A stretch of 64,000 bases of DNA from a bacterium (GCA_031385045.1 JANNBC010000013.1:32001-96000), one strand, 5' to 3'. Positions 7,873 through 23,503 are shown, counted from the first letter of the stretch. Numbers and translations are program-made. Notes: generated from the sequence alone by a model not told the origin.

Positions 7873-8012
7873 AAATTGGTGAATAATTACAGTTCTAGGG
7901 GCAACATAATCTTTTATTTTTCGATCTAGGGAACTACCCTCTTGCTACCGATAAAAGGGTCTTAGTTTTAATTTATTGAATTATCTGCAATTCATGATAT
8001 AGATCGCTCCTT

Positions 8013-10571
8013 ATGTCCAAGAAACTTGTAATTGTAGAATCACCCACTAAAGCCAAAACCATCAGCAAATTCCTAGGAAAAGGCTATGATGTGCGCTCCT
8101 CCTATGGACATATTAGGGATTTACCAGACAGCGCCAAGGAAATTCCAGCAAACGTCAAAAAGGAACCTTGGGCCCGCCTTGGAATTAATATAGATAAGGA
8201 TTTCGAGCCCTTATACATTATTTCAGCCGATAAAAAGAAGCGAGTTAAGGAACTTAAAGATCTTTTGAAAGAAGCAGATGAGATTTACCTAGCTACCGAT
8301 GAAGACCGCGAAGGAGAATCCATCAGTTGGCACCTGTTAGAGGTCTTAAAGCCAAAAGTTCCTGTTAAAAGAATGGTTTTTCATGAAATTACCAAAGAAG
8401 CCATCCAAGCTGCAATTAATTCCCCGAGAGATGTGGATATGCACTTAGTGGAAGCTCAAGAAACTCGTCGAGTTGTTGACCGTTTATATGGCTACACCGT
8501 CTCTCCTTTGCTTTGGAAAAAAATGGCTCCAAGACTTAGTGCTGGCCGAGTTCAAAGTGTTGTCTTAAGATTGCTAGTGGAAAGAGAAAGAGAAAGAATT
8601 AGCTTTCGAAGTGGAACGTATTGGGACTTAAAAGCAACATTCGCTAAAGACAGTCAAGAATTTGATGCGGAACTATTTAGCTACAAGAATCAAAGAATTG
8701 CCAGCGGAAAAGATTTCGATCCAATAAATGGTAAACTAACAGCTACATCCAAGGTCTTACTTCTTAATGCTGAGGAATCAGACAAACTGCGTACTGAGTT
8801 AAAAAAACAAACTGCTAAAATAAGCGAGGTTGATAGCAAACCGTACACAACAAAACCCTACGCTCCATTTACTACTAGCACAATTCAACAGGAAGCTAAC
8901 CGCAAACTTAGATTCTCGGCACAACGCACTATGCGTCTTGCTCAAACTCTTTATGAGAATGGTTATATTACCTACATGAGAACTGACTCAACAACTTTGT
9001 CAGCGGAAGCAATTGATGGTGCCAGAAAAATTATTTCCAATGAATTCGGTAAAGAATACTTACCGACTGCTCCTCGTGAATATAAAACTAAAGTAAAAAA
9101 TGCCCAAGAAGCCCACGAAGCAATTCGCCCAGCAGGTTCTAACTTTGCCGATCCGCAAGATGTTAAAAAGGCTCTAGGAGAAGACGAATTCAAATTATAC
9201 GAAATGATTTGGAAAAGAATGCTAGCCTGTCAGATGAAAGATGCCGAAGGCAATCGTCAATCACTAAGTGTTCAATTAGGAGATGCTGTCTTTAAAGCAT
9301 CTGGAAAAACAATTACTTTTCCCGGATTTTTAAGAGCCTACGTTGAAGGCAGTGACGATCCCGAAGCTGAAATTGCTGACCAAGAAAAAATCTTACCCGC
9401 ACTAAAAGTTTCTGAAGAATTAAGCACTAAAAAGCTTGATACCTTCGAACATAAAACTCAATCACCCGCGCGCTACACAGAAGGTAGCTTAATTAAGGAA
9501 TTAGAAAAACGTGGTATTGGCCGACCAAGTACCTGGGCCAGCGTTGTAAATCTAGTATTAACTAGAACCTATGCCTTCAAAAAAGGGACAGCCTTAGTTC
9601 CTAGTTTTCTAGCCCAAGCACTAGTTGGGTTACTAGAAAATTATTTTACAAACTTAGTCGACTATTCCTTCACTGCTCAACTAGAAGACGACCTAGATGA
9701 AATTTCCCTAGGTAAAAGTAATCGTCTAACGTATCTAACAAGTTTCTATCATGGCAATGGTCACTTAGGACTAAAAGCCTTGGTTGAAAAAGGTGAAGAG
9801 ACAATTGATCCACGAATAGTTTGTGGATTAGAAATTGGACATGACGCTAATGGCGTAAAACTAGAAGTGCGAATTGGTCGCTATGGTCCGTTCCTAACTA
9901 ACGGAGAAACACGTGCAGGTCTTCCAGAGGAATTAGCTCCCGACGAGCTCACTATGGAACGAGCCTTAGAGTTAATTGCAACAGCAGAGCGTGGTCCAGA
10001 ATCCCTTGGTATCGAACCGGAGTCAGGCCTTCCTGTCTTCCTAAAAACTGGACGCTATGGGCCTTATGTTCAACTAGGAGAGAAAACTGAGGATTATCCA
10101 AAACCAAAAATGGCCTCGCTTTTAAGCAATCAAGTTGCAATAGATCTAACACTAGAACAAGCAATTGGACTACTGAGTCTTCCTCGTAAAATTGGAACAT
10201 TCCCCGACAACAACGAAGATATAGTTGCTGCTAATGGAAGATTTGGACCCTACCTAAAAGCGGGAACTGAAACACGAAGCTTAAACTTAGCTAATCATTC
10301 TCCTGTTACAGTAACACTGGAAGAAGCAATTGAAATTTTACGCACACCCAAAACTCGTGGCCGACAAACCGTTGCTAGTGTCTTAAAAGAATTGGGAGTT
10401 CATCCAGTTACTAATAAGAAGCTACAAATTAAGAATGGTAAGTATGGGCCTTACGTGACTGATGGAAAACTAAATGCCTCAGTTCCAAAAGATAAATCAC
10501 CAGAAGAAGTGACATTAGAAGATGCTGTAAATTTGCTCAGCTTAAGAGCTGAGCAAATTAAAAATAAATAA
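8013..10571 (+). CDS. topA: DNA topoisomerase I with C-terminal GRYGPY-type repeats
   Basis: LVIVESPTKAKTI, ATDEDREGE, SAGRVQS, GYITYMRTDS (catalytic Tyr), AQEAHEAIRP; four GR/KY/FGP repeats in place of zinc ribbons. Confidence 0.97.
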   Translation: MSKKLVIVESPTKAKTISKFLGKGYDVRSSYGHIRDLPDSAKEIPANVKKEPWARLGINIDKDFEPLYIISADKKKRVKELKDLLKEADEIYLATDEDREGESISWHLLEVLKPKVPVKRMVFHEITKEAIQAAINSPRDVDMHLVEAQETRRVVDRLYGYTVSPLLWKKMAPRLSAGRVQSVVLRLLVERERERISFRSGTYWDLKATFAKDSQEFDAELFSYKNQRIASGKDFDPINGKLTATSKVLLLNAEESDKLRTELKKQTAKISEVDSKPYTTKPYAPFTTSTIQQEANRKLRFSAQRTMRLAQTLYENGYITYMRTDSTTLSAEAIDGARKIISNEFGKEYLPTAPREYKTKVKNAQEAHEAIRPAGSNFADPQDVKKALGEDEFKLYEMIWKRMLACQMKDAEGNRQSLSVQLGDAVFKASGKTITFPGFLRAYVEGSDDPEAEIADQEKILPALKVSEELSTKKLDTFEHKTQSPARYTEGSLIKELEKRGIGRPSTWASVVNLVLTRTYAFKKGTALVPSFLAQALVGLLENYFTNLVDYSFTAQLEDDLDEISLGKSNRLTYLTSFYHGNGHLGLKALVEKGEETIDPRIVCGLEIGHDANGVKLEVRIGRYGPFLTNGETRAGLPEELAPDELTMERALELIATAERGPESLGIEPESGLPVFLKTGRYGPYVQLGEKTEDYPKPKMASLLSNQVAIDLTLEQAIGLLSLPRKIGTFPDNNEDIVAANGRFGPYLKAGTETRSLNLANHSPVTVTLEEAIEILRTPKTRGRQTVASVLKELGVHPVTNKKLQIKNGKYGPYVTDGKLNASVPKDKSPEEVTLEDAVNLLSLRAEQIKNK

Positions 10572-10578
10572 TTAAAAG

Positions 10579-10598
10579 CCTAGAAAGATTTTTCTAGG
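10579..10598. terminator. Possible terminator hairpin between convergent topA and pilin genes
   Basis: CCTAGAAA-gatt-TTTCTAGG, 8-bp stem; U-tract only on the minus strand. Confidence 0.35.
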
Positions 10599-10646
10599 TG
10601 GAATTTAGCTACAGTTAAAGCTAAGAACCCGAAACAAACTCAATAA

Positions 10647-11210
10647 CTAAAACCCTGCTGCCTCACACCCACTGATTGATAGACCCGGAATTTTCTGGGC
10701 AGTCTCGACAGTCCCATTGCGGTAATAGTAAAATCCCGACCTAGTTTGTGTAACATAACCTGACATACTTGTGTAGCTACCAAAAGATCCCTTACAACTT
10801 TTAACTTCAATTACCGTAACATCGCCTTTAGGCTGATATATAAAAAAAAGTGTGAGATAAGGTGATTTAATTATTGGCCAAAGTGTGGCATCTAAAACCT
10901 GCGTTACTCTTGCTGACGCAGCTCCTAGAGCAGTTAAGTTATGATAGACAAGAGATGTCCCATTTAAGGACTTTGATGCAACCACTTCCGCAAGATTTGT
11001 CGCATTGTTTACTGGCAAATCATCTACTAGACCAGAAAGACTAAACAGTGCTTGCTTAACACTATTCGCGATGGATTCAGATTCAACATCATAGGCAGCC
11101 GTTCGATAGTTCCCATATAAAGATAGTGAAATCGAAGCCAAAATACCAAGAATCGCCACAGTCGTTAGCAACTCAACTAACGTAAATCCCTTTGATGTCA
11201 ATGTCTGCAT
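10647..11210 (-). CDS. Type IV pilin-like protein (prepilin N-terminal cleavage/methylation domain)
   Basis: KG|FTLVELLTTVAILGILASI class III signal; two C-terminal Cys. Confidence 0.88.
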   Translation of the reverse strand: MQTLTSKGFTLVELLTTVAILGILASISLSLYGNYRTAAYDVESESIANSVKQALFSLSGLVDDLPVNNATNLAEVVASKSLNGTSLVYHNLTALGAASARVTQVLDATLWPIIKSPYLTLFFIYQPKGDVTVIEVKSCKGSFGSYTSMSGYVTQTRSGFYYYRNGTVETAQKIPGLSISGCEAAGF

Positions 11211-11457
11211 CTAGATAACCAATAAAAGCATCTCCCGCATTTCTAACAACATAAGAACACATTATTGCGACACTACAATCTGGAAGACTATTATATTAAG
11301 AATAAGTGATCACTATTCTAATTACAAGACATAACCTCATAATTAGAATCGATTGGTAAGTATGAGTAGTTAAAAAATAAGTCTTTCTACCTTTATCAAA
11401 TTGAGTAACTAATAATATAATCAATGCTATGAGCTCTCATAACCTGCCACAATAACT

Positions 11458-13374
11458 GTGTTTAATATCTCTAAGAAATTAACTTCCAGATCTGTAATTA
11501 ACACTCTGCGCTGCAAAAACTTACCATTTATCTTATCGGTAACATTAGCCTGCTGTCTTTACTTAAGGAAAATCCATGAACTGCTATTTAAGGTCGAACT
11601 AGCTAGCCAATTACCCTTGTTGAACATAGATCTCAGTAGTTATTATCTATGGATCCTAAGAGGAGTAACAGCTCTAGAGAAAAACGGGCAACTGCTCGGA
11701 TATGATCCCTATATGGGTGCAGGAAGGATCATTAGTCCATCTCTTGGCATTGGATGCTTCTTATTAACCAAGATCTGTTATTACCTAAAACCATTATTTT
11801 CAGTGGAACAGTCACTACTCTATCTAGAAATATCTCTAATTATTTTACCACCACTTTTATTAATTCCAGTTTGCAAAACCCTGAGAAGTGATTCCAAGAT
11901 TTATCTGCCAGCACTAATGCTAATAGCCACTGTTTATGGATTCCATCTACCTCTAACTCCCGGTATTCAAAATGGAGCACTACTAACCTTTGAAGCATCT
12001 TGTTTTATCTCAATCTATGTTGTGACACTAATTTGTCGCTGGGTCAAAAGTACTAGTAAAAAAGACTATCTACTTTTTACAATATTACTACCACTTGTCA
12101 TTCAACTTCATATTGCTTCAATCATTACACTTTTCTTCCCATTATTTTTAATTACCTTGAATTTGATTTGGAATAAAAAATTAGGACAATTACTTTACTT
12201 AAGTCTTACCTACTCTTTCTGCCTTCTTGTAAATTATAACTTGCTCGCTCTTTGGATTGAGACAAGAGGTTGGTATACTGGAGCAGACTATCTAGGAAGT
12301 AACTACCTTGTAGTTTGGAATGAACTATTTGGAATAACAGGAGTAGATCTCTTTAGTATACTAAGTTCTGTAATCCGTTGCAGTCTTGTCTTGTTTTCTG
12401 CCGCTTATCTAAGTGCTAACCTAAAAAAGTCTTTTTGTAATAAAAAACTATTATTCTACTGGCTAATCTATTTAATAGTAATTGTATCTTTTGCTGATAA
12501 TTTCCTAGGTGGAAATAAAATCCAAGCCGCCAGATACATGCTCCCTGCTTGGATCATAGTCTTAGTCTTTGCTACTGCCGAACTAAGTCATAAATCAAAT
12601 CGGCCTCTCAAGCTGACCTTCTATAGCTTACTAATTCTTTCTGGATTTATTTGTAAATATTCAACAAAGAACACAGAGCTTTCTAACTCGGCAAAAGTAA
12701 CGCCATATTCTAAGTACTACACACTGACAAATGAAAAAGTTTTTTTTAATATTCTAACCCCCGAAGAGCAACGCCTAGTTAGCTTTATCTCCCATGATCT
12801 ACCTAAAAATGGACGACTACTAATGGAAACAGCAGATAAATTTACTTTTCATTTGGTATCATTAATTAATGCTACTTCCAATGTTTCACAAATTGGCGAG
12901 GAGGCCAAATCAAGTCATACGATCAACAACTTTCAAATTTTTTATCGAGGGGACGATCTAATTGCCTTCCAAGAAATACCTTATTTGCCAAACAGTAACT
13001 TTGAGCAATATTTAAATCTCTATAATATTACCCATATTGCCACCACCGACCTAGTTACTAAAGGGTTAATTAGTCCTTTCTTAGATCCAAAAGGACTTTT
13101 TGTATCAAATATTTACTCGATATTTAAAACTAAGATCGAGCCAACTTGGTTTATGACCGGCAAAGGAGATGTTGAATATGCAATCAATCAAATTAAATTA
13201 CACCATTTATCAGCCGGAGAAATTATCACTAAATTTCATTATATCAAGGGTTTAGTGACCGAACCAAATGTAAAAATTAATCCAATCTACATCCTAAAAG
13301 ATCCCGTTCCCTTTATTTCCTTTAATAATGTTGATGCCCTAAGCGAAATAAAAATATATTTTCCTAGAAACTAG
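11458..13374 (+). CDS. Polytopic membrane protein, GT-C/YfhO-like putative glycosyltransferase
   Basis: Early loop GYDPYMGAG, about 11 TM segments, RY motif after late TMs, soluble C-terminal domain with YNITHI. Confidence 0.55.
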   Translation: MFNISKKLTSRSVINTLRCKNLPFILSVTLACCLYLRKIHELLFKVELASQLPLLNIDLSSYYLWILRGVTALEKNGQLLGYDPYMGAGRIISPSLGIGCFLLTKICYYLKPLFSVEQSLLYLEISLIILPPLLLIPVCKTLRSDSKIYLPALMLIATVYGFHLPLTPGIQNGALLTFEASCFISIYVVTLICRWVKSTSKKDYLLFTILLPLVIQLHIASIITLFFPLFLITLNLIWNKKLGQLLYLSLTYSFCLLVNYNLLALWIETRGWYTGADYLGSNYLVVWNELFGITGVDLFSILSSVIRCSLVLFSAAYLSANLKKSFCNKKLLFYWLIYLIVIVSFADNFLGGNKIQAARYMLPAWIIVLVFATAELSHKSNRPLKLTFYSLLILSGFICKYSTKNTELSNSAKVTPYSKYYTLTNEKVFFNILTPEEQRLVSFISHDLPKNGRLLMETADKFTFHLVSLINATSNVSQIGEEAKSSHTINNFQIFYRGDDLIAFQEIPYLPNSNFEQYLNLYNITHIATTDLVTKGLISPFLDPKGLFVSNIYSIFKTKIEPTWFMTGKGDVEYAINQIKLHHLSAGEIITKFHYIKGLVTEPNVKINPIYILKDPVPFISFNNVDALSEIKIYFPRN

Positions 13375-13376
13375 TA

Positions 13377-13610
13377 TTACTCCTTCGTAATATTTTTAAT
13401 AATTCGTAGCTCTAAATCTCTTAGATCACCAACCTTACTAAATCGATTATCAATAAATTGGCGGAAACTCTTTTTGATAATCTTTAAATGTTTAGCAAAC
13501 CGAAGACAACGACGGCAGATAATCAGATGCATTCTCACTTCCATTCTTTGAAGTAAGGTTAGATCTTCCTGACTATCAACAATCCGAATAATTTCACGGC
13601 AAGATCGCAT
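13377..13610 (-). CDS. zf-HC2 anti-sigma factor
   Basis: SC..I and MHLIICRRC (HxxxCxxC); directly downstream of the ECF sigma. Confidence 0.88.
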   Translation of the reverse strand: MRSCREIIRIVDSQEDLTLLQRMEVRMHLIICRRCLRFAKHLKIIKKSFRQFIDNRFSKVGDLRDLELRIIKNITKE

Positions 13611-13615
13611 AACTC

Positions 13616-14209
13616 TTATCTTGTAATTTTAAACTCTAAGCAGTGTCTTAAGCTAGCCTTTGCTCTAAATAGCAAGACACCTAAGTTAGTGACAGTTACA
13701 TCTAAAATCTTACATATTTCTTGACTTGAATATTCTTCAATCTCTCGAAGATAAAAGGCAAGCCGTTGCGACAAAGGTAGATTAGTAAGACATTTTTCAA
13801 TAAAACTAAGTGTTTGAGAAGCTTCTAGCATTTTATCAGGGCTAACTAGATGACTAGACCAATGGCCTTTGTCATCAAAACAATCATTCAGTAAGTCTTC
13901 GATCCGATCTTCTGGAATATTTTTTTGAATATCTCGATGAAGCTCACGAGCCTTATTATAAAGAATTCCAAAAAGATAAGTTTTAAGCTGAGAACGACCT
14001 TCAAATTTATCAGGAGCCTGAAAAAATATTGCCCAAGTATTTTGCACTAGATCTTCTGCTTCCTGATCTGAAATAAACCCCAAACCATAGGCTCCCTTTA
14101 GTAAGTAAGAAGTATACTCTCTAACAATCAGCTCAATTACCTCAGAATTCTTACTGCTTATTGCCTCGACTAACTCAATCTCAGTAAAATCTTCAATTTT
14201 TTTATTCAC
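13616..14209 (-). CDS. ECF RNA polymerase sigma factor (resembles the TIGR02943 family)
   Basis: AEDLVQNT, FEGRSQLKTYLFGIL, FDDKGHW, EICKILDVTVTNLGVLLFRAK..LRHCLE. Confidence 0.9.
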   Translation of the reverse strand: MNKKIEDFTEIELVEAISSKNSEVIELIVREYTSYLLKGAYGLGFISDQEAEDLVQNTWAIFFQAPDKFEGRSQLKTYLFGILYNKARELHRDIQKNIPEDRIEDLLNDCFDDKGHWSSHLVSPDKMLEASQTLSFIEKCLTNLPLSQRLAFYLREIEEYSSQEICKILDVTVTNLGVLLFRAKASLRHCLEFKITR

Positions 14210-14437
14210 TATAATTTTAATTAAAAACGATTAAAAACAGGAAGTTAAGCTTCTTAACTATAGAATCAGACCCTTCCTATCGCAATAGACTGTAAATTAA
14301 TTCTATAATCTAAAAAACTTTGTAATAATTTAGTTAAGACACACACTAATAGTGGTAATAAAGATTATCTGAGGTAGTTAACTCAAATTCTTTAAAATTT
14401 AAAAAATAAACATATAATATATTCTTGGAGAAATAGA

Positions 14438-14686
14438 ATGATTAAGAAAACTCTTTTGTTAGCATTAATTGCTATCTGTAGCCTAGTGATTGGAATTACT
14501 TCTGCTAGCGCTTCCCCAGTAGCACCAAATAGTAACATGCAAACACTACAAGCTGATGACACCAAAAAGTGTGATGACGGCAAAGAAGATGAAACAGCTA
14601 AATGCGATGACGGCAAAGACAAAGAGGCCACTAAGTGTGGTGATGGGAAAGAGAAAGAAAAATGTGGGGCTGGGAAATGTGGTTAA
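14438..14686 (+). CDS. Secreted Cys-repeat peptide, HvfA/oxazolin (bufferin-like) RiPP-precursor-like
   Basis: Sec signal ending SASA, then KCDDGK x2, KCGDGK and terminal KCGAGKCG; RBS GGAG upstream. Confidence 0.8.
   Translation: MIKKTLLLALIAICSLVIGITSASASPVAPNSNMQTLQADDTKKCDDGKEDETAKCDDGKDKEATKCGDGKEKEKCGAGKCG
14567..14683 (+). repeat. Degenerate 33-bp coding tandem repeat (KC-D/G-DGK units)
   Basis: aagtgtgatgacggcaaagaa / aaatgcgatgacggcaaagac / aagtgtggtgatgggaaagag at 33-nt spacing, then shorter units. Confidence 0.75.
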
Positions 14687-14727
14687 TCTCCTTCTTAGAT
14701 TAATTTTATAGAAAAATTTATTCTTTT

Positions 14728-14764
14728 AAACGGCATTCAGAACTAAAAAAACTGACTGCCGTTT
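14728..14764 (+). terminator. Stem-loop between the precursor gene and doxX (leaky terminator or mRNA stabiliser)
   Basis: AAACGGCA...TGCCGTTT with inner TCAG/CTGA, followed by TCTTT. Confidence 0.6.
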
Positions 14765-14797
14765 TCTTTACCAGCAAAAGTATTTTAATTAACGACT

Positions 14798-15238
14798 ATG
14801 TCTAAAATCCTAAATCTGATTAGCAATTTAAAAGATTTTCCACCTTTACTTTTTCGCTTAATCCTTGCTTATGGATTTCTTTATCCAGCGCTGGCTAAAG
14901 TTAATAATATCTCAGCAATCGCCGAATGGTTTGCTGGTATGAACATTCCCTTTCCTCTTTTAAATGCTTACTTAGCAACTACAACTGAAATATCAGGGGT
15001 AATTTTACTAACTCTGGGACTTGCAACTAGATTAATCTCAATCCCATTAATGTTTACAATGTTCGTTGCAATCTTTACAGTCCACTTTCAACATGGATTT
15101 GAGGCTGGCAAGAATGGCTTTGAGATCCCATTATATTACTTATTAATGCTCTTTAGTTTATTAATCAGTGGCCCTGGAAGATTAAGTTTAGATTATTTAA
15201 TTTTTAAGAAATTTCAATTAAATTCTTGTGGAAAATAA
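14798..15238 (+). CDS. DoxX family membrane protein (HvfX-like)
   Basis: RLILAYGF, EISGVILLTLGLATR, VH, NGFEIPLYY, GPGRLSLD. Confidence 0.9.
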   Translation: MSKILNLISNLKDFPPLLFRLILAYGFLYPALAKVNNISAIAEWFAGMNIPFPLLNAYLATTTEISGVILLTLGLATRLISIPLMFTMFVAIFTVHFQHGFEAGKNGFEIPLYYLLMLFSLLISGPGRLSLDYLIFKKFQLNSCGK

Positions 15239-15815
15239 AAAGCTCTTTGCTGATTTTTCAAATGGAATAATCGATCGGCGTATTTTTCTAAAGGGGCTTT
15301 TAGTTCTAACAGGAAGCTTAACCCTTAGTGGTTGCCTAAGTTATTTTTATCAAGAATCTGGGGAGAGCTCGCGACTTGATAATCTTCAACTGAAAAATAT
15401 TGCAGCAGCACAAAGACATCTTTTCCCTAAAACAGATACAGCTCCAGGAGCCGAACAAATTAATGCTTTAGATTACTTGCAGTTCGTCCTTCATGATCAA
15501 CAGATCAGCCGAGAAGATCGAGACTTTATCCTTAAAGGCGCTGTTTGGCTTAACGAAACAAGCATAGAAGACTTTCAGATTGATTTTTATTTGCTAGATT
15601 TTAATCAACGTGAAAAACTTTTTCAAAAGATCTCCCAAAAAACTTGGGGAGAAAATTGGCTTTCAGCAATTTTAAAATATATCTTTGAAGCACTGCTGAG
15701 TGATCCGCTGTATGGCGGAAACCCAAACTCTATTGGTTGGGATTGGTTACAATTCCAACCTGGATACCCAAGACCTACAGAACTGAATCTTTATCCTAAA
15801 ATTTTAAAGCTATGA
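15228..15815 (+). CDS. Gluconate 2-dehydrogenase subunit 3 family protein (Tat, probable lipoprotein)
   Basis: DRRIFLKG Tat motif, LSGC lipobox, PGA, SDPLYGGN..IGW....PG. Confidence 0.87.
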   Translation: MENKKLFADFSNGIIDRRIFLKGLLVLTGSLTLSGCLSYFYQESGESSRLDNLQLKNIAAAQRHLFPKTDTAPGAEQINALDYLQFVLHDQQISREDRDFILKGAVWLNETSIEDFQIDFYLLDFNQREKLFQKISQKTWGENWLSAILKYIFEALLSDPLYGGNPNSIGWDWLQFQPGYPRPTELNLYPKILKL

Positions 15816-17485
15816 TCAAAGATTGTGATGTTTGCATTATTGGTTCCGGTGCCGGTGGATCCCCAATTGCCTTTGAGCTTGCGAGTGCAGGATATTCTGT
15901 AATTGTCTTAGAAAAGGGGCCGTGGTTTAAAGAAAATGATTTTGCTAAAGATGAGCTAGTAGCAGTGAGACGAAGTGTCTATACACCAAGTCTAAAGCAA
16001 GAATTTCATGTGCTTGAAACTGGCAAAGAGAACAATTGGAAAGCTCAATCAACTTTAGATTCGGGTAGAAACTTTTGGAACGGAAACTGTGTTGGAGGAT
16101 CTTCTAATTTTATGAGTGGTTACTTCCATCGTTTAAAGCCCGAGGATTTTCGACTGCTTTCAGAATTTGGAGCGATTTCTGGGGCTAATATTGCTGACTG
16201 GCCCATTAGCTATCAAGATCTCGAGCCTTACTATGCTAAGGTTGAAAAAATTGTTGGCATCTCAGGAAGAATCATCGCTCATCCCTTTCAAGAACCTCGC
16301 TCTACTCCAGATTTTCCATTTCCACCACTTCAAGAAAATTATGTTAGTAAAATAATTGATGACACCTGTGCTCAATTAAATTTTAATTCTGTGCCAGTTG
16401 CCCGAGCAATTCTTTCACAACCTCATAACAATCGAGCAAGTTGCTACTACTCTAATTTCTGTGGAAGCTATGGTTGTCATAGCGGAGCCAAGGGTAGCGC
16501 CCGTGCTGCCCTTTTAGATCTCGCTGTTAAAACTGGGAAATGTGAGATTCGTCCCCATTCTTTTGTTTATCACCTAACAAGTGACAATCAGGGAAAGGTA
16601 AATCTTGTGAAGTATTATGATCGCGAAGGACAAACACGACAAGTCTCAGCCCAGATTTTTGTAGTAGCCTGCCAAGCAATCGAGACTAGTCGTTTACTCT
16701 TAATGTCTACTGGCAGTAAACATCCTGAGGGTCTTGCCAATCACAATGGTCAGCTTGGTAAAAATTTAATTTTTTCTGCAGGAGCAACTGGCAATGGCAC
16801 AATTCGACTATCTGACTATCCAGAAGACATCGCCCAGCAATTAAAACTTCCCGGACTCTTTGTTAATCGCTCTTTGCAAGACTGGTATATTGCTAACGAT
16901 AGTTCATTAGGTGGAAGGGTTAAAGGGGGACTTATTGATTTTCTTTTCGATCATGCTAATCCAATTCGCCGTGCCAATAGTCTAAAATGGGAGGGTGATC
17001 AATTACTATGGGGCGAAGCACTTCAAAATCGTCTACAAGCAGGATTTACAAATGAAAGACAACTAAACTTCGAAGTCTTTAATGACTGGCTCCCAACCGA
17101 TAATTGCTTTGTAGCTCTAGATCCTACCAATAAAGATAAGTGGCAAAATCCTGTAGCCAAAGTTAGATTAGGATATCATCAACACGACTTAAAAATTGCT
17201 AAATTTCTTGGTGAAAAAGCTAAATCAGTCTTAGAAGCTATGAAACTTAAAAACATAACGACCAGTGTCAGTGGGGCTCCGCCCGCCAATCTTGTCGCTG
17301 GTGGTTGTCGCTTTGGAGTCGACCCTGACAAGCATATCTTAGATCCCGACTGCCGAGCTTACAGTGCTAGTAATTTGTTTGTTGCTGATGCTAGCTTTAT
17401 GCCTACGGGAGGCAGTGTTCCATATACTTGGACAATCTACGCCAATTCATTTCGAGTAGCAGATAAGATTAAAGCTCAACTTTAA
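15812..17485 (+). CDS. GMC family FAD oxidoreductase (gluconate 2-dehydrogenase alpha-like)
   Basis: IIGSGAGG, GNCVGGSS, WPISYQDLEPYY, C-x4-C-x3-C cluster motif CYYSNFCGSYGC, GGCRFG, NLFVADASFMPTGG. Confidence 0.92.
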   Translation: MIKDCDVCIIGSGAGGSPIAFELASAGYSVIVLEKGPWFKENDFAKDELVAVRRSVYTPSLKQEFHVLETGKENNWKAQSTLDSGRNFWNGNCVGGSSNFMSGYFHRLKPEDFRLLSEFGAISGANIADWPISYQDLEPYYAKVEKIVGISGRIIAHPFQEPRSTPDFPFPPLQENYVSKIIDDTCAQLNFNSVPVARAILSQPHNNRASCYYSNFCGSYGCHSGAKGSARAALLDLAVKTGKCEIRPHSFVYHLTSDNQGKVNLVKYYDREGQTRQVSAQIFVVACQAIETSRLLLMSTGSKHPEGLANHNGQLGKNLIFSAGATGNGTIRLSDYPEDIAQQLKLPGLFVNRSLQDWYIANDSSLGGRVKGGLIDFLFDHANPIRRANSLKWEGDQLLWGEALQNRLQAGFTNERQLNFEVFNDWLPTDNCFVALDPTNKDKWQNPVAKVRLGYHQHDLKIAKFLGEKAKSVLEAMKLKNITTSVSGAPPANLVAGGCRFGVDPDKHILDPDCRAYSASNLFVADASFMPTGGSVPYTWTIYANSFRVADKIKAQL

Positions 17486-17994
17486 ATAGCATTTATTTGA
17501 TCAATTAATTGCTTAAAGCCTGATGGTTCTAAGCTAGCTGACTCCATTAACTTCACAATTAACTGATTATTTTTTAAAACAGCACGAGAAATTGGATATG
17601 CAATTAAGATCTCCATTAGTTGTTTAGCTAATTCTTGATTAACACATTCATCAAACAATAGAATTTCACTTTTGAGATTATCAGCCTTAATCACAAACTT
17701 AGCTTTTGATCTACAAAAATAAGGCGCTGTGGAACGATAAAATTCTAGCTGGTGAAAATTATTATTTGCAATTGGAACGGAGAAAGATCCCTTGGCTACT
17801 GAGACAGAATAGCGACTAAGCTCTACATTTTGTTCCTCGGTTAAGAGGACTTCCTTTTTCTTCCCAAGCTTTGCCATTGACCGACCAATTAACCAGGGAA
17901 CAAGTGGTAGAGCGGGAATAATTGATAACAATGGCGCGAATGGACAAGACATTACTACTACTCTCCCATCATTTAAATCATTTGCAAAGATCAA
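17482..17994 (-). CDS. Hypothetical protein
   Basis: 170-aa ORF with one hydrophobic segment; start uncertain. Confidence 0.5.
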   Translation of the reverse strand: MIFANDLNDGRVVVMSCPFAPLLSIIPALPLVPWLIGRSMAKLGKKKEVLLTEEQNVELSRYSVSVAKGSFSVPIANNNFHQLEFYRSTAPYFCRSKAKFVIKADNLKSEILLFDECVNQELAKQLMEILIAYPISRAVLKNNQLIVKLMESASLEPSGFKQLIDQINAI

Positions 17995-18074
17995 GAAAAG
18001 TAGCCGACTAAGTTTTGTAACTCTAGTTAATATCTGCTAAGATTTACCAAGCAATTTAATACTATAGAAATTTT

Positions 18075-18653
18075 ATGACTAATGTTACAGCAACTAAGAT
18101 TGCCCCACTACCGTTCCCAGAAAGCTTTCTCCTGCGATATTTGATTGCCCCGTATTATCTTAGTAAGTACGACTTAGCTTTTGCAAGTAGTGACTATGAG
18201 AAATTAACAAAGATTATTATTCGTCTAGTTAATGCTGCTGGCGCTGATAAGATTACTCAAAGAGTTAAAATAAAAAGAATCTATGGACTAGAAGAATCTT
18301 CCACTAACTGGTCTTTAGGAATGACCTTGGAGCATCTCGTTTTAGTGGGGGAAGGCTTTATGAAAATCATCCAACAACTAAACGATGATGGTAAATCTTC
18401 CGTGATTGCTAATCCTGCCTTAGTAAAACCACAAGGGGAAATTGCCGATCCTTTAGCCCTATTTACAGATCATATTCAGAAGTACAAAGATTTTATTGCT
18501 GGAATCAACTTCTCTAAAAATTCCACAAGCACTAATCTACATCCTTGGGTTGGAGAGCTTACCCAAAAAGATTGGCATAGTTTTACTGTAATCCATCTGC
18601 AAGTGCATCTTAGACAAATCAAAATAATTTTTGATCATCTAAAAGACAACTAA
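18075..18653 (+). CDS. DinB-like family protein
   Basis: WSLGMTLEHL, HPWVGELT..DW, HLQVHLRQI. Confidence 0.82.
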   Translation: MTNVTATKIAPLPFPESFLLRYLIAPYYLSKYDLAFASSDYEKLTKIIIRLVNAAGADKITQRVKIKRIYGLEESSTNWSLGMTLEHLVLVGEGFMKIIQQLNDDGKSSVIANPALVKPQGEIADPLALFTDHIQKYKDFIAGINFSKNSTSTNLHPWVGELTQKDWHSFTVIHLQVHLRQIKIIFDHLKDN

Positions 18654-18660
18654 AAGTTAA

Positions 18661-19536
18661 TTGGCTATGCTCTTAGTGATAAAAATACTTGGAATACTAC
18701 TAATTTTATTTCTTGCCTCCTGTTCTCGGATCAAAATCTATGCGGTGAATGTCCTAGCACTTTACCGCGGACAAACTCTCTATCGAGATTTAAGTTATGC
18801 CGCTTTGCCCAGACAAAAACTTAATGTCTATACTCCAAAAGAGAAGACTGAAGAGCTTCGCCCTGTAATCATATTTTTCTATGGCGGCGGATGGGAGACT
18901 GGCTCTAAAGACGATTATCGTTTTGTTGCGGAGCCATTTATTAGCAATGATTATGTTGTCGTAGTCCCTGACTATGCCAAATATCCTGAATTCAAATACC
19001 CAACTTTTGTAGAAGATGGGGCAAAGGCAGTTGCTTGGACTTATCAAAATATAAAACACTATGGTGGAGATCCAGAAAAAATAATCCTGATTGGTCATTC
19101 TGCTGGAGCACACCTAGCTGGATTATTAGCAACCAATCAAGACTATCTAGCAAACCTGAAAGTCCCTAAAGAAATCATTCGTGGCTTTGTTGGAATTTCA
19201 GGTGCCTATGATTTTATACCAGTAAAACAAAGTTATGTTGCCGTATTCTCTCCAATAGCTAAAAATCTTGCTAGTGGCATGCCAGCAACATACTTTAAAG
19301 ATCCAACTCTCCCCGTCTTATTAATCCACACACGACAAGACGAAGTTATCGATCTGGAAAATATTACTAGCATGCAAACTCAAGCTGAGGAATACAAACT
19401 AAACTTGGATGTTAGATATTACGACTCACTAACTCACATAGGTACAATTGCCGCCTTCTCTCTTCCACTCCGTTCAAAGTCTTCTCTACTATCAGATGTC
19501 CTCACTTTTTGTAAAAAGCAAACAAAAGAAATTTAA
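18661..19536 (+). CDS. Alpha/beta hydrolase (esterase), probable lipoprotein
   Basis: LASC lipobox, YGGGW oxyanion motif, GHSAG nucleophile, late D and H. Confidence 0.9.
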   Translation: MAMLLVIKILGILLILFLASCSRIKIYAVNVLALYRGQTLYRDLSYAALPRQKLNVYTPKEKTEELRPVIIFFYGGGWETGSKDDYRFVAEPFISNDYVVVVPDYAKYPEFKYPTFVEDGAKAVAWTYQNIKHYGGDPEKIILIGHSAGAHLAGLLATNQDYLANLKVPKEIIRGFVGISGAYDFIPVKQSYVAVFSPIAKNLASGMPATYFKDPTLPVLLIHTRQDEVIDLENITSMQTQAEEYKLNLDVRYYDSLTHIGTIAAFSLPLRSKSSLLSDVLTFCKKQTKEI

Positions 19537-19692
19537 TTTCTATATCAGACATCTCGAATAGCTATTCTAGAAGTTTATCTTGTGACCAGCATTACTAGAG
19601 CAGAATTTTATTGAACTTAATTATTTTCAAGTAATTTATAATAAAATAGCGTACACTGGTAAGTTGAGATCTTTATTATTAAACAAGTACCT

Positions 19693-20157
19693 ATGGAACA
19701 AAGCAATATTTTTACTGAAATCCTTTTTGCTGGAACACTCTCAGGATTAGTAATCACTAGCCTAGTCACTTATATCTTTCATTTAATTTGGAAGAACTCG
19801 GGGTTCAATATTTCACCAGTCAAAGCTATTGGAGATGCCCTAGGAAATAAAGGCATTAAGAGTACAGGGGTTACTAGCTTGGTAGCTCACTTACTAATAG
19901 GTAGTATTTTAGGAGTTGTTTATTTCGCGTTACTATCTAAATTCAACCTCCCACCACTTCAGTCGATTCTAGCATCTACCGCAATTGGCTTTGGTCATGG
20001 GTTTGTTGTTGCCTTCCTAATTTTTAATAGTCTCAATGAGAAAGCAACAACAAAAGACGTCCGTGATTTCAGCCCAGCAATTAGTATTATCTACTTAGCG
20101 GCTCATGTAATTTTCGGACTAGTCATTGGAGCTCTTTACGCTAGCCTGATCGCTTAA
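19693..20157 (+). CDS. Hypothetical 4-TM membrane protein
   Basis: Four hydrophobic helices with intramembrane His (AHLLIG, GHGF, AHVIFG). Confidence 0.65.
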   Translation: MEQSNIFTEILFAGTLSGLVITSLVTYIFHLIWKNSGFNISPVKAIGDALGNKGIKSTGVTSLVAHLLIGSILGVVYFALLSKFNLPPLQSILASTAIGFGHGFVVAFLIFNSLNEKATTKDVRDFSPAISIIYLAAHVIFGLVIGALYASLIA

Positions 20158-20867
20158 AATCTAAATGTGAGATAAGCAGCAAGGGCTGTAATCCGACGAT
20201 CAGATTTATTTAAACGATCACTAGTCTCTACAAAGTATCCAACTTCAACTCTTGTTTTTTTATTATCCCAGTAAGGTCCAAAAAAGATTCGATTGCGATC
20301 GTAGCCAGACTTAACACTTGGCTTAACGGCATTTAGATTATAAAAATATTCATCATAAGCTGTTAAACCAACGACTGCTCCATCAGCCAAATCCATCAGT
20401 GGGTGAGAAACTCTAAGTAAATAGCGCAATCGATTAGCCTCTCCGTATACGCCCTCGATATAACGCTCTTCCAGACGTGCCCGATGATTAATCTGCCAAT
20501 TACCAAAAGTCTGATCATAAGTTACTTGTTGCCAAATGCGTTGCTCATCATTGAACTTATGGTTATACGCCGAATCCATAAAAAGCGGTGTCCAGGCATA
20601 CCCTAACCATAAAACAAGATTTGGCGCTAAGGCATAACCAACGGCCGGGCGAACTAATAAGCGCTCAGGATAACTAACATTGTCTCCAATCCTAGGTTGT
20701 AACTCTGCTGACCAACGCCAGTTAGAGCCTTCCTGAAACTTACCATTGGCCATAAAAGCTGACCAAAGCTGTGTATCATTCTCTGCCGACGCTAAGCTAC
20801 AAAAGCAAATGAACTGTAGAGCTAAAAAATAGCTAAAAAATAATTTTTGATAATTTTTTGTAAACAT
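20154..20867 (-). CDS. DUF2490 family outer-membrane beta-barrel protein
   Basis: Signal peptide, EQRIWQQ, HRARLEER, RLRY, AYDEYF, DRNR, C-terminal Phe. Confidence 0.85.
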   Translation of the reverse strand: MFTKNYQKLFFSYFLALQFICFCSLASAENDTQLWSAFMANGKFQEGSNWRWSAELQPRIGDNVSYPERLLVRPAVGYALAPNLVLWLGYAWTPLFMDSAYNHKFNDEQRIWQQVTYDQTFGNWQINHRARLEERYIEGVYGEANRLRYLLRVSHPLMDLADGAVVGLTAYDEYFYNLNAVKPSVKSGYDRNRIFFGPYWDNKKTRVEVGYFVETSDRLNKSDRRITALAAYLTFRF

Positions 20868-20878
20868 AAGTTTTACCC

Positions 20879-22168
20879 TTAAACTATATAATTATAAATC
20901 TTGAGTATTAGATCTGGCCCTAAGCCATTTACTAAAACAATAAAAATTAAAATAATTAGCGCCAGCTTTTCACGCAATTTTGGTTGAAATATTTTATTAT
21001 AAATTTGTAATGGATTTCCATAAAATGAATCTCCAAAAATTCGAAAGCAAGAATATCCATTTAAGGCTAAAGCAAAAACAAAGCACCCCGCCACCAACCA
21101 GTATTCCTGACTTAGATTATGAAGTAGAATTTCGATACTCATAAATCCTAACGTCCCAGGAAATCCAATTAAGGATAAAACACAGAAAAGAAAAGAAAGA
21201 CCAAATACCGGAAATGAGATCGCCAGGCCTGTTGCGGAATCTAAATTTTCTGGACCAATTCGATCTCGAAGCATAGCAATAATAATCACTAAACTACTAA
21301 TGCAAATGGAAGTATTAAAAAAATCCATAATCGAATGAATTTCGGAACCATGCTGCACCAACAGACCATTTAAAATAAAGAGCGGGACGTGCCACTGATA
21401 AAGGGAAGAAGCAATCCCACTCAACTTCCGCTCTCCAAATAAAATCAAAGCAGAATATAATAAATTAGCGGTTAGCATGATTAAAATAATCTTTGGATAT
21501 AAATGAAAGGCTGTAGTCATTAAAAAACCAAACTTGCACCAGAATACAAAACCAATATTCAAACGAATAATTGCCGCCAAGCCATATCTAGTTGGTGCTA
21601 AGAAAATTGGCTTAACCCAAAAATGAAACGGGAAAATTCCTACCATTAATGCCAAACTTAGGATGCCTAGAATAATTGTTGTTAGAGTTAAATGACTGGC
21701 AGAAGTCTGTAGCTGGCTAATAGTAAATAGACCATTAAAGACAGTCAGATTAACTAACAGCAAACTAAGTAAGCCAATGGCAATTAATGAAAAGCCACTA
21801 AATACTAAAAAGTAATGACTCTGCTTAATAGTTTGATAAACATCTTGTCGGCTAATTCGGATATGAAGTAACAGAGCGCAGGTAATAAAAAATATAAACA
21901 GCAGAAGACTGTCTGTTAATAAGCAAAAATTGATTAACAATTGCAGACAAAACCAACTATGCGAGAAGCGAAATTTAAAGATCCTAGAACCAAACGCTGA
22001 ATAGACCAGTGTCAACATCAAATTAAAGATCACTCCACAGAAGAGAGTTGGAGTCTGCAAAACTGCTTCCGAAATAAGTCCTAAATCTGTAGCATTTGGA
22101 TTACTAAATAACCAAACAAATAATGCCAAAAAGCAAATGCTGATTAAGGTATATAAATTTCTAATCAT
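20879..22168 (-). CDS. NuoM/MrpD-like proton-antiporter subunit associated with DAB
   Basis: GIFPFHFW and LSLIGFPGTLGFMSIE; polytopic; co-transcribed behind dabB. Confidence 0.8.
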   Translation of the reverse strand: MIRNLYTLISICFLALFVWLFSNPNATDLGLISEAVLQTPTLFCGVIFNLMLTLVYSAFGSRIFKFRFSHSWFCLQLLINFCLLTDSLLLFIFFITCALLLHIRISRQDVYQTIKQSHYFLVFSGFSLIAIGLLSLLLVNLTVFNGLFTISQLQTSASHLTLTTIILGILSLALMVGIFPFHFWVKPIFLAPTRYGLAAIIRLNIGFVFWCKFGFLMTTAFHLYPKIILIMLTANLLYSALILFGERKLSGIASSLYQWHVPLFILNGLLVQHGSEIHSIMDFFNTSICISSLVIIIAMLRDRIGPENLDSATGLAISFPVFGLSFLFCVLSLIGFPGTLGFMSIEILLHNLSQEYWLVAGCFVFALALNGYSCFRIFGDSFYGNPLQIYNKIFQPKLREKLALIILIFIVLVNGLGPDLILKIYNYIV

Positions 22169-22172
22169 TGCC

Positions 22173-23498
22173 TTACTTATGAATATTAAATTTTAGGAAG
22201 CGATAAAAAACTTTCTCAAACAAATGAAAAAGATATTCATTACAACGAAGATCAAAATATCTAAGCCCAGTAGAAGTTTTCTCAAGTAGATTTAAGACAC
22301 TCCATTTATCAGAAAAACTGGAGTAGTTCTCCCAAAAAACATAAGCATAGATTTTCTGCCAAAAAGTATTCCGCGCTGGAACCTTCTTCGGCTGATACTG
22401 ACCAATTGTATGCTGAAAAGCTTGATGATCATGCAGGAGTGAAGCAGCATTAAGCAGTTGGTATGTTCGCAGCAGTGCATGACCAATAAAGTGTACTAAA
22501 ACAATTGTCGTCCAGCCAAATCCAATCTCGATAAACATTACTCCTACCTGTGTCATGGCCGAAAATGCTAGCGTGCTTTTAGCATCACTTTGGATTTTGG
22601 CTAAAATCGATCCGTACAACACGGTTGTTAAGCCAACTAAAACTAACAAAACGGCAAACCAGACTGGACGACCAAGGCTTTCTGTAATCCTTAGTAGTAA
22701 ATAAATTCCAGCGTGCACCGATAGACCACCATAAAAAATAGCACTAGATGGGGTGGGACCTTCCATTGCTTTTGGCAACCAGTGACCAAAAGGAAACTGT
22801 GCCGACTTCCCCATCGCTGAAATCAAACACAAAATTAGGATTAAATTAATTGTTAGTGGCTGTTGAATACCACGCATATCTGTAAAACTTAAAATCCCTA
22901 AGTTAAGTACAATTAATGAAGCTAATAATAAACCAGTATCAGTAACGCGATATGCCCAAAAAGCCCGTAGGGAATTAGTAACAGTCTGCTTACGAAATGA
23001 GAAGAAGGCAATCAATAGAGCTGAAGTTAATCCTACAATTTCCCAGCCAATAAAAATTCCCGTTAAATTTCCAGACAGGACAATTAAATGCATCCCAAAA
23101 AGAAAAAAGTGATAAAGGACAAAGAATCTGAAATAACCAAGATCTCGATGCAGATACTTGGAAGCAAACACACCAACAATCGCGCCAAGTAAAACATTTA
23201 AACTGACAAAGGCTAGCGATAGATAATCAATTAAAAACTTAATCGAAATAGATTCCTGTCCAAAGTTTAGCAAATCAATACTAAGAAATTGCAGCTGTGA
23301 GTGACTATCTAATAAGAAGCGAAACCAAACAACACTGAGTGCAATGAACGATAAGGATTGAGAATAAAGAATAGTCTTAATAACTAATTTTTCACTAACC
23401 CTTCTCTGCACCAAGCGATCAATGACAATCACCAAAAGCGATAGAACTGGTAAAATAAAAATCAGCTGTGCTGCTAACTGTGAAATTAATTTAATCAT
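22173..23498 (-). CDS. dabB: Inorganic carbon transporter subunit DabB (NuoL-like)
   Basis: FIGWEIVGLTS, KSAQFPFGHWLPKAMEGPTPSSA, HAG, HALLRTYQLL; immediately downstream of dabA. Confidence 0.87.
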   Translation of the reverse strand: MIKLISQLAAQLIFILPVLSLLVIVIDRLVQRRVSEKLVIKTILYSQSLSFIALSVVWFRFLLDSHSQLQFLSIDLLNFGQESISIKFLIDYLSLAFVSLNVLLGAIVGVFASKYLHRDLGYFRFFVLYHFFLFGMHLIVLSGNLTGIFIGWEIVGLTSALLIAFFSFRKQTVTNSLRAFWAYRVTDTGLLLASLIVLNLGILSFTDMRGIQQPLTINLILILCLISAMGKSAQFPFGHWLPKAMEGPTPSSAIFYGGLSVHAGIYLLLRITESLGRPVWFAVLLVLVGLTTVLYGSILAKIQSDAKSTLAFSAMTQVGVMFIEIGFGWTTIVLVHFIGHALLRTYQLLNAASLLHDHQAFQHTIGQYQPKKVPARNTFWQKIYAYVFWENYSSFSDKWSVLNLLEKTSTGLRYFDLRCNEYLFHLFEKVFYRFLKFNIHK

Positions 23499-23503
23499 GA
23501 CTA

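Follow-up and report, generated by a model that had tools for sequence, protein, structure and literature searches.

Introduction

Secreted peptides built on Lys-Cys-Gly (KCG) repeats, among them HvfA/oxazolin, fontiphorin and gonophorin (Buf_EGKCG, 'captophorin'), are known as copper binders and are the usual substrates of iron enzymes of the MNIO family, which make 5-thiooxazoles on EGKCG peptides (PMC13097082). Peptide cysteines are also oxidized by other means. The GMC flavoproteins ThaO and TheO turn a peptide cysteine into a thiazole, with a loss of 20 Da and, for ThaO, nuclear magnetic resonance data; oxidation to a thioaldehyde by flavin adenine dinucleotide (FAD) has been proposed for this reaction, a gene resembling gluconate dehydrogenase subunit 3 is part of the TheO cluster, and flavin oxidation of cysteine is likewise known in aminovinyl-cysteine (AviCys) peptides (PMC13083261). 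The radical S-adenosylmethionine (SAM) enzyme SbtM produces 5-thiooxazole with no MNIO involved, and cysteine thioaldehydes can be trapped to 5-thio-oxazoline, model chemistry giving both thiazole and 5-thiooxazole routes (PMC13638132). Precursors have been reported without an MNIO in 67 of 2583 EGKCG genomes, for which the survey offers no enzyme (Table 3), and its profile has a score of 0 in five Sulfurimonas, Sulfurovum and Nitratiruptor rows (PMC12452194). Here we describe a cluster at positions 13377..17485 of a 64,000-nt stretch of bacterial DNA (GCA_031385045.1 JANNBC010000013.1:32001-96000; this whole stretch is the window), in which a KCG-repeat precursor is accompanied by a GMC flavoprotein and a subunit-3-like protein instead of an MNIO. 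We propose, with a probability of about 0.7, that this flavoprotein is a periplasmic, MNIO-independent maturase that oxidizes the cysteines of the peptide to azoles.

The cluster resembles the captophorin systems in its secreted KCG-repeat precursor, its HvfX-type DoxX protein, its extracytoplasmic function (ECF) sigma factor and anti-sigma factor of the same kind, and the EF-hand fusions of the precursor. It differs from them in the absence of MNIO and DUF2063 genes, in the GMC and subunit-3 genes found instead, whose action is predicted to follow export, and in the acidic residues that are common after cysteine. With ThaO and TheO it shares the GMC fold with a Cx5Cx4C motif, the motifs of the clade, a Cys-Gly target and, for TheO, a subunit-3 gene in the cluster, and it is unlike them in substrate class and predicted location. 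Whereas those enzymes act in Acidobacteriota on one cysteine of a lanthipeptide precursor that bears a leader, the substrate here would be a Sec-exported multi-cysteine repeat, and the subunit-3 protein of the window carries a twin-arginine translocation (Tat) lipoprotein signal; no lanthipeptide-type leader or LanM was found among the genes at 8000-24000 of the window. The enzyme is not a sugar dehydrogenase, and differs in key residues from the FAD glucose dehydrogenase (GDH) of Burkholderia cepacia and the fructose dehydrogenase (FDH) of Gluconobacter, which are like it in fold, in the 3Fe-4S cysteines and in the small subunit that serves as partner for Tat hitchhiking. The window operon contains no cytochrome c subunit, and none of the multiheme type of GDH, FDH and gluconate dehydrogenase was found in the window; in four Flavobacteriales loci a single-heme cytochrome gene comes after GMC, and in a fifth a cytochrome-like ORF (open reading frame). 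SbtM and the EpiD-type flavin cysteine decarboxylases have cysteine thioaldehyde chemistry without an MNIO in common with the proposed reaction, their folds and substrates being unrelated. A literature search found no paper joining GMC enzymes to KCG or bufferin peptides, subscription papers and bioRxiv supplements lying outside its reach; neither PMC12452194 nor PMC13097082 mentions 'GMC' in its main text, and a part of the PMC12452194 supplements has 0 mentions as well.

The genes on which the proposal rests are the following (lengths in amino acids, aa):

14438..14686, + strand: secreted KCG-repeat precursor, 82 aa, with a Sec-type signal peptide and five mature-region cysteines; likely substrate
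14798..15238, + strand: HvfX-family DoxX membrane protein (PF07681; NF050144)
15228..15815, + strand: gluconate-dehydrogenase subunit-3-like protein with a twin-arginine motif and a lipobox (PF13618, Gluconate_2-dh3); predicted Tat carrier of the GMC protein
15812..17485, + strand: GMC flavoprotein, 557 aa (GMC_oxred_N/C); likely cysteine-oxidizing peptide maturase

The last three genes overlap by 11 nt and 4 nt, and 111 bp separate the precursor from doxX; the genes, overlaps, spacer and cysteine motifs described in an earlier note on this DNA were all recovered where it had placed them. At least 90% of 55 aligned subunit-3 relatives retain the twin-arginine motif, and TatC is encoded in the window genome; export of a folded enzyme is therefore predicted. 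The DoxX protein passes NF050144, the HvfX model built for clusters of copper-related peptides that are made by the ribosome and modified after translation (RiPPs), with 127 bits against a cut-off of 80, and a biosynthetic role is not expected of DoxX (PMC11252979).

Results

The GMC flavoprotein lacks the catalytic pair of sugar dehydrogenases

The closest solved sequences are GDH of B. cepacia and FDH of Gluconobacter (6A2U, 9JQA), and an AlphaFold model of the window enzyme built on a 58-row alignment (predicted local distance difference test score 86.8) superimposed on FDH and GDH with template modelling scores of 0.77-0.80 at 22-24% identity. In B. cepacia GDH, Cys212/218/222 are the 3Fe-4S ligands, His105 links the FAD, and His476 and Asn519 are the likely catalytic pair (PMC6719666). 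The window enzyme keeps the cysteine triad as C211/C217/C222 and has L494 and P537 in place of the catalytic His and Asn. These features are shared by its clade, in which the three cluster cysteines are invariant (84/84 sequences), all 82 ungapped rows have Leu at the His476 position, all 81 ungapped rows have Pro or Thr at the Asn519 position, and the position of the covalent-FAD His105 is mostly Phe or Leu (F/L100). A plain gluconate or glucose dehydrogenase was rejected on the replacement of the His/Asn pair.

Of the close database homologues, 118 of 120 share Asn-Leu at the catalytic-His site. In 102 distant representatives, the His476 position is occupied by Leu 30 times and by His 62 times, and Asn519 is kept in none of the 30 Leu rows versus 49 of the 62 His rows. 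A histidine at position 381 is present in 16/30 Leu rows and 0/62 His rows; from this alignment pattern, His381 is a candidate for a relocated catalytic residue. The His-less rows form one 33-row branch, to which the window enzyme belongs (FastTree support 99). The counts for three motifs visible in ThaO and TheO are 25, 13 and 15 among the 33 rows of this branch (window included) versus 1, 2 and 0 among the 70 others, and P0148, which is TheO-like by eye and 35% identical to the window enzyme, falls within it. The loss of the His/Asn pair and the motif-based placement near GMC maturases that convert cysteine to thiazole make a different periplasmic oxidative modification the best supported of the options that the earlier note had left side by side. 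A complex prediction of the GMC protein with subunit 3, FAD and the peptide scored 0.02 and was used neither for nor against the proposal. The 33 His-less representatives (branch P0124-P0222) are about 30-57% identical, some being 720-770 aa long and so of a length that fusions could have, and the branch may hold more flavoenzymes that modify peptides.

KCG precursors recur beside the GMC gene

A GTDB scan returned 534 stretches that encode a GMC relative, of which the best 80 loci were retained. A KCG precursor lies within 6.5 kb of the GMC gene in 31 of these 80 (27 found by script, plus L030-L033), and these precursor-adjacent loci span Bdellovibrionota, Bacteroidota and Campylobacterota. 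The two genes stand in tandem operons or as divergent pairs, and the precursors include lipoproteins and EF-hand fusions. When adjacency was mapped as a label on the GMC tree, 17 changes were required, at least 11 of them forced by well-supported branches; the pairing is therefore not one inherited block. PF05114, the MNIO family, had no match in any of the 31 precursor-adjacent genomes. Of the 49 loci with no adjacent precursor, 34 lie in genomes that lack an MNIO, and 22 of these genomes hold a KCG precursor or a KCG-tagged protein elsewhere, often with DoxX (in the non-adjacent genomes mostly the best match per genome was opened). With a linkage conserved across three phyla and no suitable MNIO in trans, the view that the GMC pair occupies the place of the MNIO has gained support.

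Some individual loci deserve mention. In L149 (G291), precursor, DoxX, subunit 3 and GMC form an operon in the order of the window, with the GMC gene in two pieces. A plasmid search with P0132 gave four records, of which one was opened (NZ_CP118374.1, L357); on this Sulfurospirillum plasmid, a divergent KCG precursor, subunit 3, GMC, msrPQ and a two-component system are found between transposases, and the unit can therefore be mobile. Two Sulfurimonas genomes (G110, G115) hold both systems: about 3 kb separate an MNIO cassette with its own precursor from a native-type precursor, and the GMC gene lies elsewhere (L109, L110, L309, L310).

The window genome has no bufferin-type MNIO

The window genome (G000; 2.83 Mb, 94.9% complete) is without a bufferin-type MNIO or DUF2063. 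DUF2063 had 0 matches in it, and the single PF05114 match, at 24.3 bits against a cut-off of 25, is a truncated ORF at a contig end (C30), whereas the bufferin-type MNIOs in this analysis score about 285-390 bits. A profile made from 14 bufferin-type MNIOs found no match in the window genome, and a same-genus genome that is 97% complete and carries the same cluster had no PF05114 match. These searches and the 31 of 80 linked loci speak against what the earlier note had named as its own refutation, namely an MNIO/DUF2063 pair elsewhere combined with an unlinked GMC pair. An MNIO acting on the peptide in trans, to which the incompleteness of the genome and the one divergent C30 ORF might point, is very unlikely, given the low score of that ORF, the absence of DUF2063, its own B12 radical SAM gene and small ORF, and the lack of a counterpart in the same-genus genome and of PF05114 in the adjacent-type genomes.

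The C30 ORF lies behind the B12 radical SAM gene with no DUF2063 alongside, and the contig end (L095:1-3044, - strand) appears as a separate candidate RiPP cluster, composed of an acidic ORF of 45 aa with HAFHAFRF at its end, the B12 radical SAM gene, whose product is TIGR03975-like (79 bits, below cut-off), and the truncated MNIO-like ORF.

The precursor peptides and the residue after cysteine

The window precursor has five cysteines in its mature region (KCDDGK twice, KCGDGK and KCGAGKCG) and one in its signal peptide, and could be aligned with 17 related precursors. The peptide itself had no match to the HvfA models NF050137 and NF050188 at E<=0.01; of its GMC-linked relatives, 6 of 8 tested passed the NF050137 cut-off, one of them from the same family. 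Of 195 cysteine sites in 37 GMC-linked peptides, 25 are followed by Glu or Asp, versus none of 118 in MNIO-linked ones (17 peptides), and at two of the five mature cysteines of the window the next residue is Asp; the KCDDGK variant had indeed been singled out as atypical. FonB was blocked by every tested residue after cysteine except Gly and Ala (PMC13097082). Such a drift of the substrate fits an enzyme other than an MNIO.

We predict a metal role for the peptide, probably with copper, from its family and its neighbors, because heavy-metal-associated, CusB and Msr genes lie near or are fused to KCG peptides. CusB, single-heme cytochromes and proteins of the DsbD_2 and DUF4395 types carry short KCxxGKCG tags as fusions (L321, L124, L126, L301, L303, L136, L155), these fusions being in GMC genomes without an MNIO. 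In three loci (L142-L144; G150, G152, G158), the genes for subunit 3 and GMC are immediately preceded by Met-rich precursors with MKCG/KCG motifs, Met-rich sequence being typical of copper binders. The window genome also encodes a second cysteine-rich secreted lipoprotein of 72 aa with KCDAG and SCGGAKCG (G000:C37 21019-21237; L094:7017-7235, - strand), located beside pirin and near feoB with no enzyme nearby, which may serve the GMC protein as a second substrate.

Precursors and enzymes in three lineage samples

We surveyed 201 genomes of Campylobacteria, 201 of Flavobacteriales and 41 of the window's own order (443 in total). In Campylobacteria, GMC was found in 20 genomes, MNIO in 8 and both in 1. 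A KCG peptide was present in all 20 GMC genomes (16 beside the GMC gene, 3 elsewhere and 1 beside its MNIO) and in 7 of the 8 MNIO genomes, and in 0 of the 174 others; of ten profile matches inspected in genomes that lack both enzymes, none was a KCG peptide. The KCGxGKCG DNA pattern had 5 of its 19 matches in Campylobacteria outside any ORF. In Flavobacteriales, NF050137 matched in 6 of 201 genomes, two with GMC and no MNIO (one being the genome on which the sample was centered) and four beside an MNIO, and a third GMC genome gave no precursor; in one genome (G320), sigma factor, anti-sigma factor, precursor and DoxX stand together with the GMC pair on another contig. Precursors were found in 8 of the 41 genomes of the window's own order, four with GMC and four beside an MNIO (one partly read), PF05114 having been searched in 10 of the 41, and a fifth GMC genome gave no precursor. 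Pooled over the 443 genomes, the 40 precursor genomes comprise 25 with GMC only, 14 with MNIO only, 1 with both and 0 with neither.

Discussion

Weighing the maturase proposal against alternatives

Several observations count against the proposal or temper it. The maturase claim draws on gene content, the lack of a bufferin-type MNIO, conserved pairing, residue changes and a predicted fold. ThaO and TheO were compared over their first ~400 residues, and their placement relies on motifs and on the proxy P0148 rather than on direct alignment. TheO is active in E. coli without its subunit-3 protein and is impaired by a Gly-to-Ala change next to the cysteine, whereas KCG peptides carry Lys before it (PMC13083261). 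Among the 49 non-adjacent GTDB loci, 15 are in MNIO genomes (12 of them Gammaproteobacteria), which with G183 gives 16 genomes with both enzymes; in the 12 Gammaproteobacteria the GMC pair and the peptide are at separate sites, the pair mostly with fimV on one side and parA/CHAD genes on the other, and of 16 MNIO loci opened at least 10 had a KCG precursor directly upstream. In all, 14 GMC genomes gave no precursor: 12 of the 34 non-adjacent genomes that lack an MNIO, and G006 and G336. The Campylobacteria genomes with GMC were searched harder than the rest, uniform genome-wide tests alone giving a KCG peptide in 14/20 GMC, 6/8 MNIO and 0/174 other genomes. The overlap of GMC and MNIO in that sample (1/20 versus 7/181) is no lower than chance (p 0.57), and with this value and the 16 genomes with both, strict mutual exclusion of the two enzymes was rejected. 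Many of the genomes are incomplete, and kin within the samples do not count as independent. Finally, of 119 metagenome loci picked by peptide motif, 117 were analyzed (9 without a motif-bearing ORF), and 23 had an MNIO in the flank and 0 a GMC pair, contigs being short; GMC is therefore the minority route and MNIO dominates overall. The KCGxGKCG DNA pattern was unspecific in this set, many matches being an unrelated oxidoreductase.

An explanation to which we give a small chance is that the peptide stays unmodified and the GMC pair acts on another periplasmic substrate as an enzyme of metal or oxidant stress, the two being found together because of a shared regulon. The position of the GMC genes in the 12 MNIO-bearing Gammaproteobacteria and the 14 GMC genomes that gave no precursor are in keeping with it, as is the suggestion that, where a genome lacks an MNIO, its precursors function without modification or are dead (PMC12452194). 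This account predicts, however, precursor genomes with neither enzyme, of which there was none among the 40, and it leaves unexplained the loss of the alcohol-oxidizing residues and the ThaO-like motifs.

We hold it to be similarly improbable that the peptide acts as free thiols or disulfides that the GMC pair keeps reduced, or reduces anew, with membrane electrons passed through DoxX or a cytochrome. Such recycling would account for the same gene linkage; also in its favor are the replacement of the FAD-linking His105 (F/L100) with the 3Fe-4S relay kept, and the MsrPQ or MsrAB repair genes near several GMC loci. However, the clade alignment contains no conserved redox cysteine pair besides the cluster ligands, and the only characterized enzymes with the same motifs, ThaO and TheO, oxidize cysteine irreversibly. 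DoxX is present in only ~9 of the 80 GMC loci and also in MNIO clusters, which tells against the GMC-to-DoxX chain that the earlier note had offered as one option.

Possible chemistry and product

Under the maturase proposal, metal or oxidant stress would lead the anti-sigma factor to release the sigma factor and so switch on the operon, and the Sec-exported peptide would meet the GMC protein, exported by Tat while riding on subunit 3, in the periplasm. There the FAD would take a hydride from the cysteine beta carbon to give a thioaldehyde, a step for which the His base may be less needed than for the oxidation of an alcohol. Closure through sulfur would give a thiazole (-20 Da, as with ThaO and TheO), and closure through the upstream carbonyl oxygen with a second oxidation would give a 5-thiooxazole (-4 Da), the electrons leaving in either case through the 3Fe-4S cluster to an acceptor. 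If the cysteines are modified, we tentatively favor a thiazole, though at less than even odds, because of the homology to ThaO and TheO; a 5-thiooxazole, for which the substrate shared with MNIOs argues, is a serious but again tentative candidate, and some other product is unlikely. More doubtful is the bolder idea that the His-less GMC enzyme installs the MNIO-type 5-thiooxazole copper ligand without non-heme iron or O2 activation, which would be a third convergent route, would suit low-oxygen hosts, and would also arm the short KCG tags of CusB, of cytochromes and of membrane proteins, as a general modification for metal binding made after export.

Regulators, hairpin and flanking genes

The remaining features of the cluster are:

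13377..13610, - strand: zinc-type anti-sigma factor, 77 aa (HxxxCxxC motif; NF052368 match below cut-off)
13616..14209, - strand: ECF sigma factor, TIGR02943-like, 197 aa (Sigma70_r2/r4_2 domains)
14210..14437, unstranded: divergent promoter region (short blocks kept in a same-genus relative)
14728..14764, + strand: RNA hairpin, then a T-rich run (paired change in the same-genus relative)

The description of the first gene product as a zf-HC2 anti-sigma factor stands in part: it has the HxxxCxxC motif and matches NF052368 below cut-off (E 4.7e-11, 42 bits against 50), and Pfam zf-HC2 gave no match at E<=0.01. Similar anti-sigma genes adjoin MNIO-type KCG clusters, and the window sigma factor is 35% identical to sigma factors that adjoin such clusters (L282, L283); control of the operon by this sigma factor is what we infer. 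A scan for sigma-70 promoters and terminators found 15 versus a shuffle mean of 11.9, with nothing above the shuffles. The spacer hairpin at 14728-14764 is modest alone (z -2.15; 6 of 200 shuffles equally good), and it is retained in the same-genus relative with a paired change on both arms; it likely raises the precursor mRNA relative to the downstream genes. The cluster is flanked by an ORF at 17482-17994 (- strand, 170 aa) and one for a 638-aa membrane protein at 11458-13374 (+ strand), neither with a Pfam or NCBIfam match; both have counterparts at the same-genus locus, and their ends converge on the cluster.

Implications

If the proposal is true, the cluster represents an unrecognized second way to make metal-binding KCG peptides, and would explain the KCG precursors in MNIO-less genomes that have been left as unmodified or dead (PMC12452194). 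Modification after export would avoid the race with Sec secretion that cytoplasmic MNIOs face. ThaO-type flavin chemistry, so far seen on two lanthipeptide precursors, would gain a widespread physiological substrate, as indicated by the 534 GTDB stretches, and either product, a poly-thiazole or a thiooxazole, would be new enzymology.

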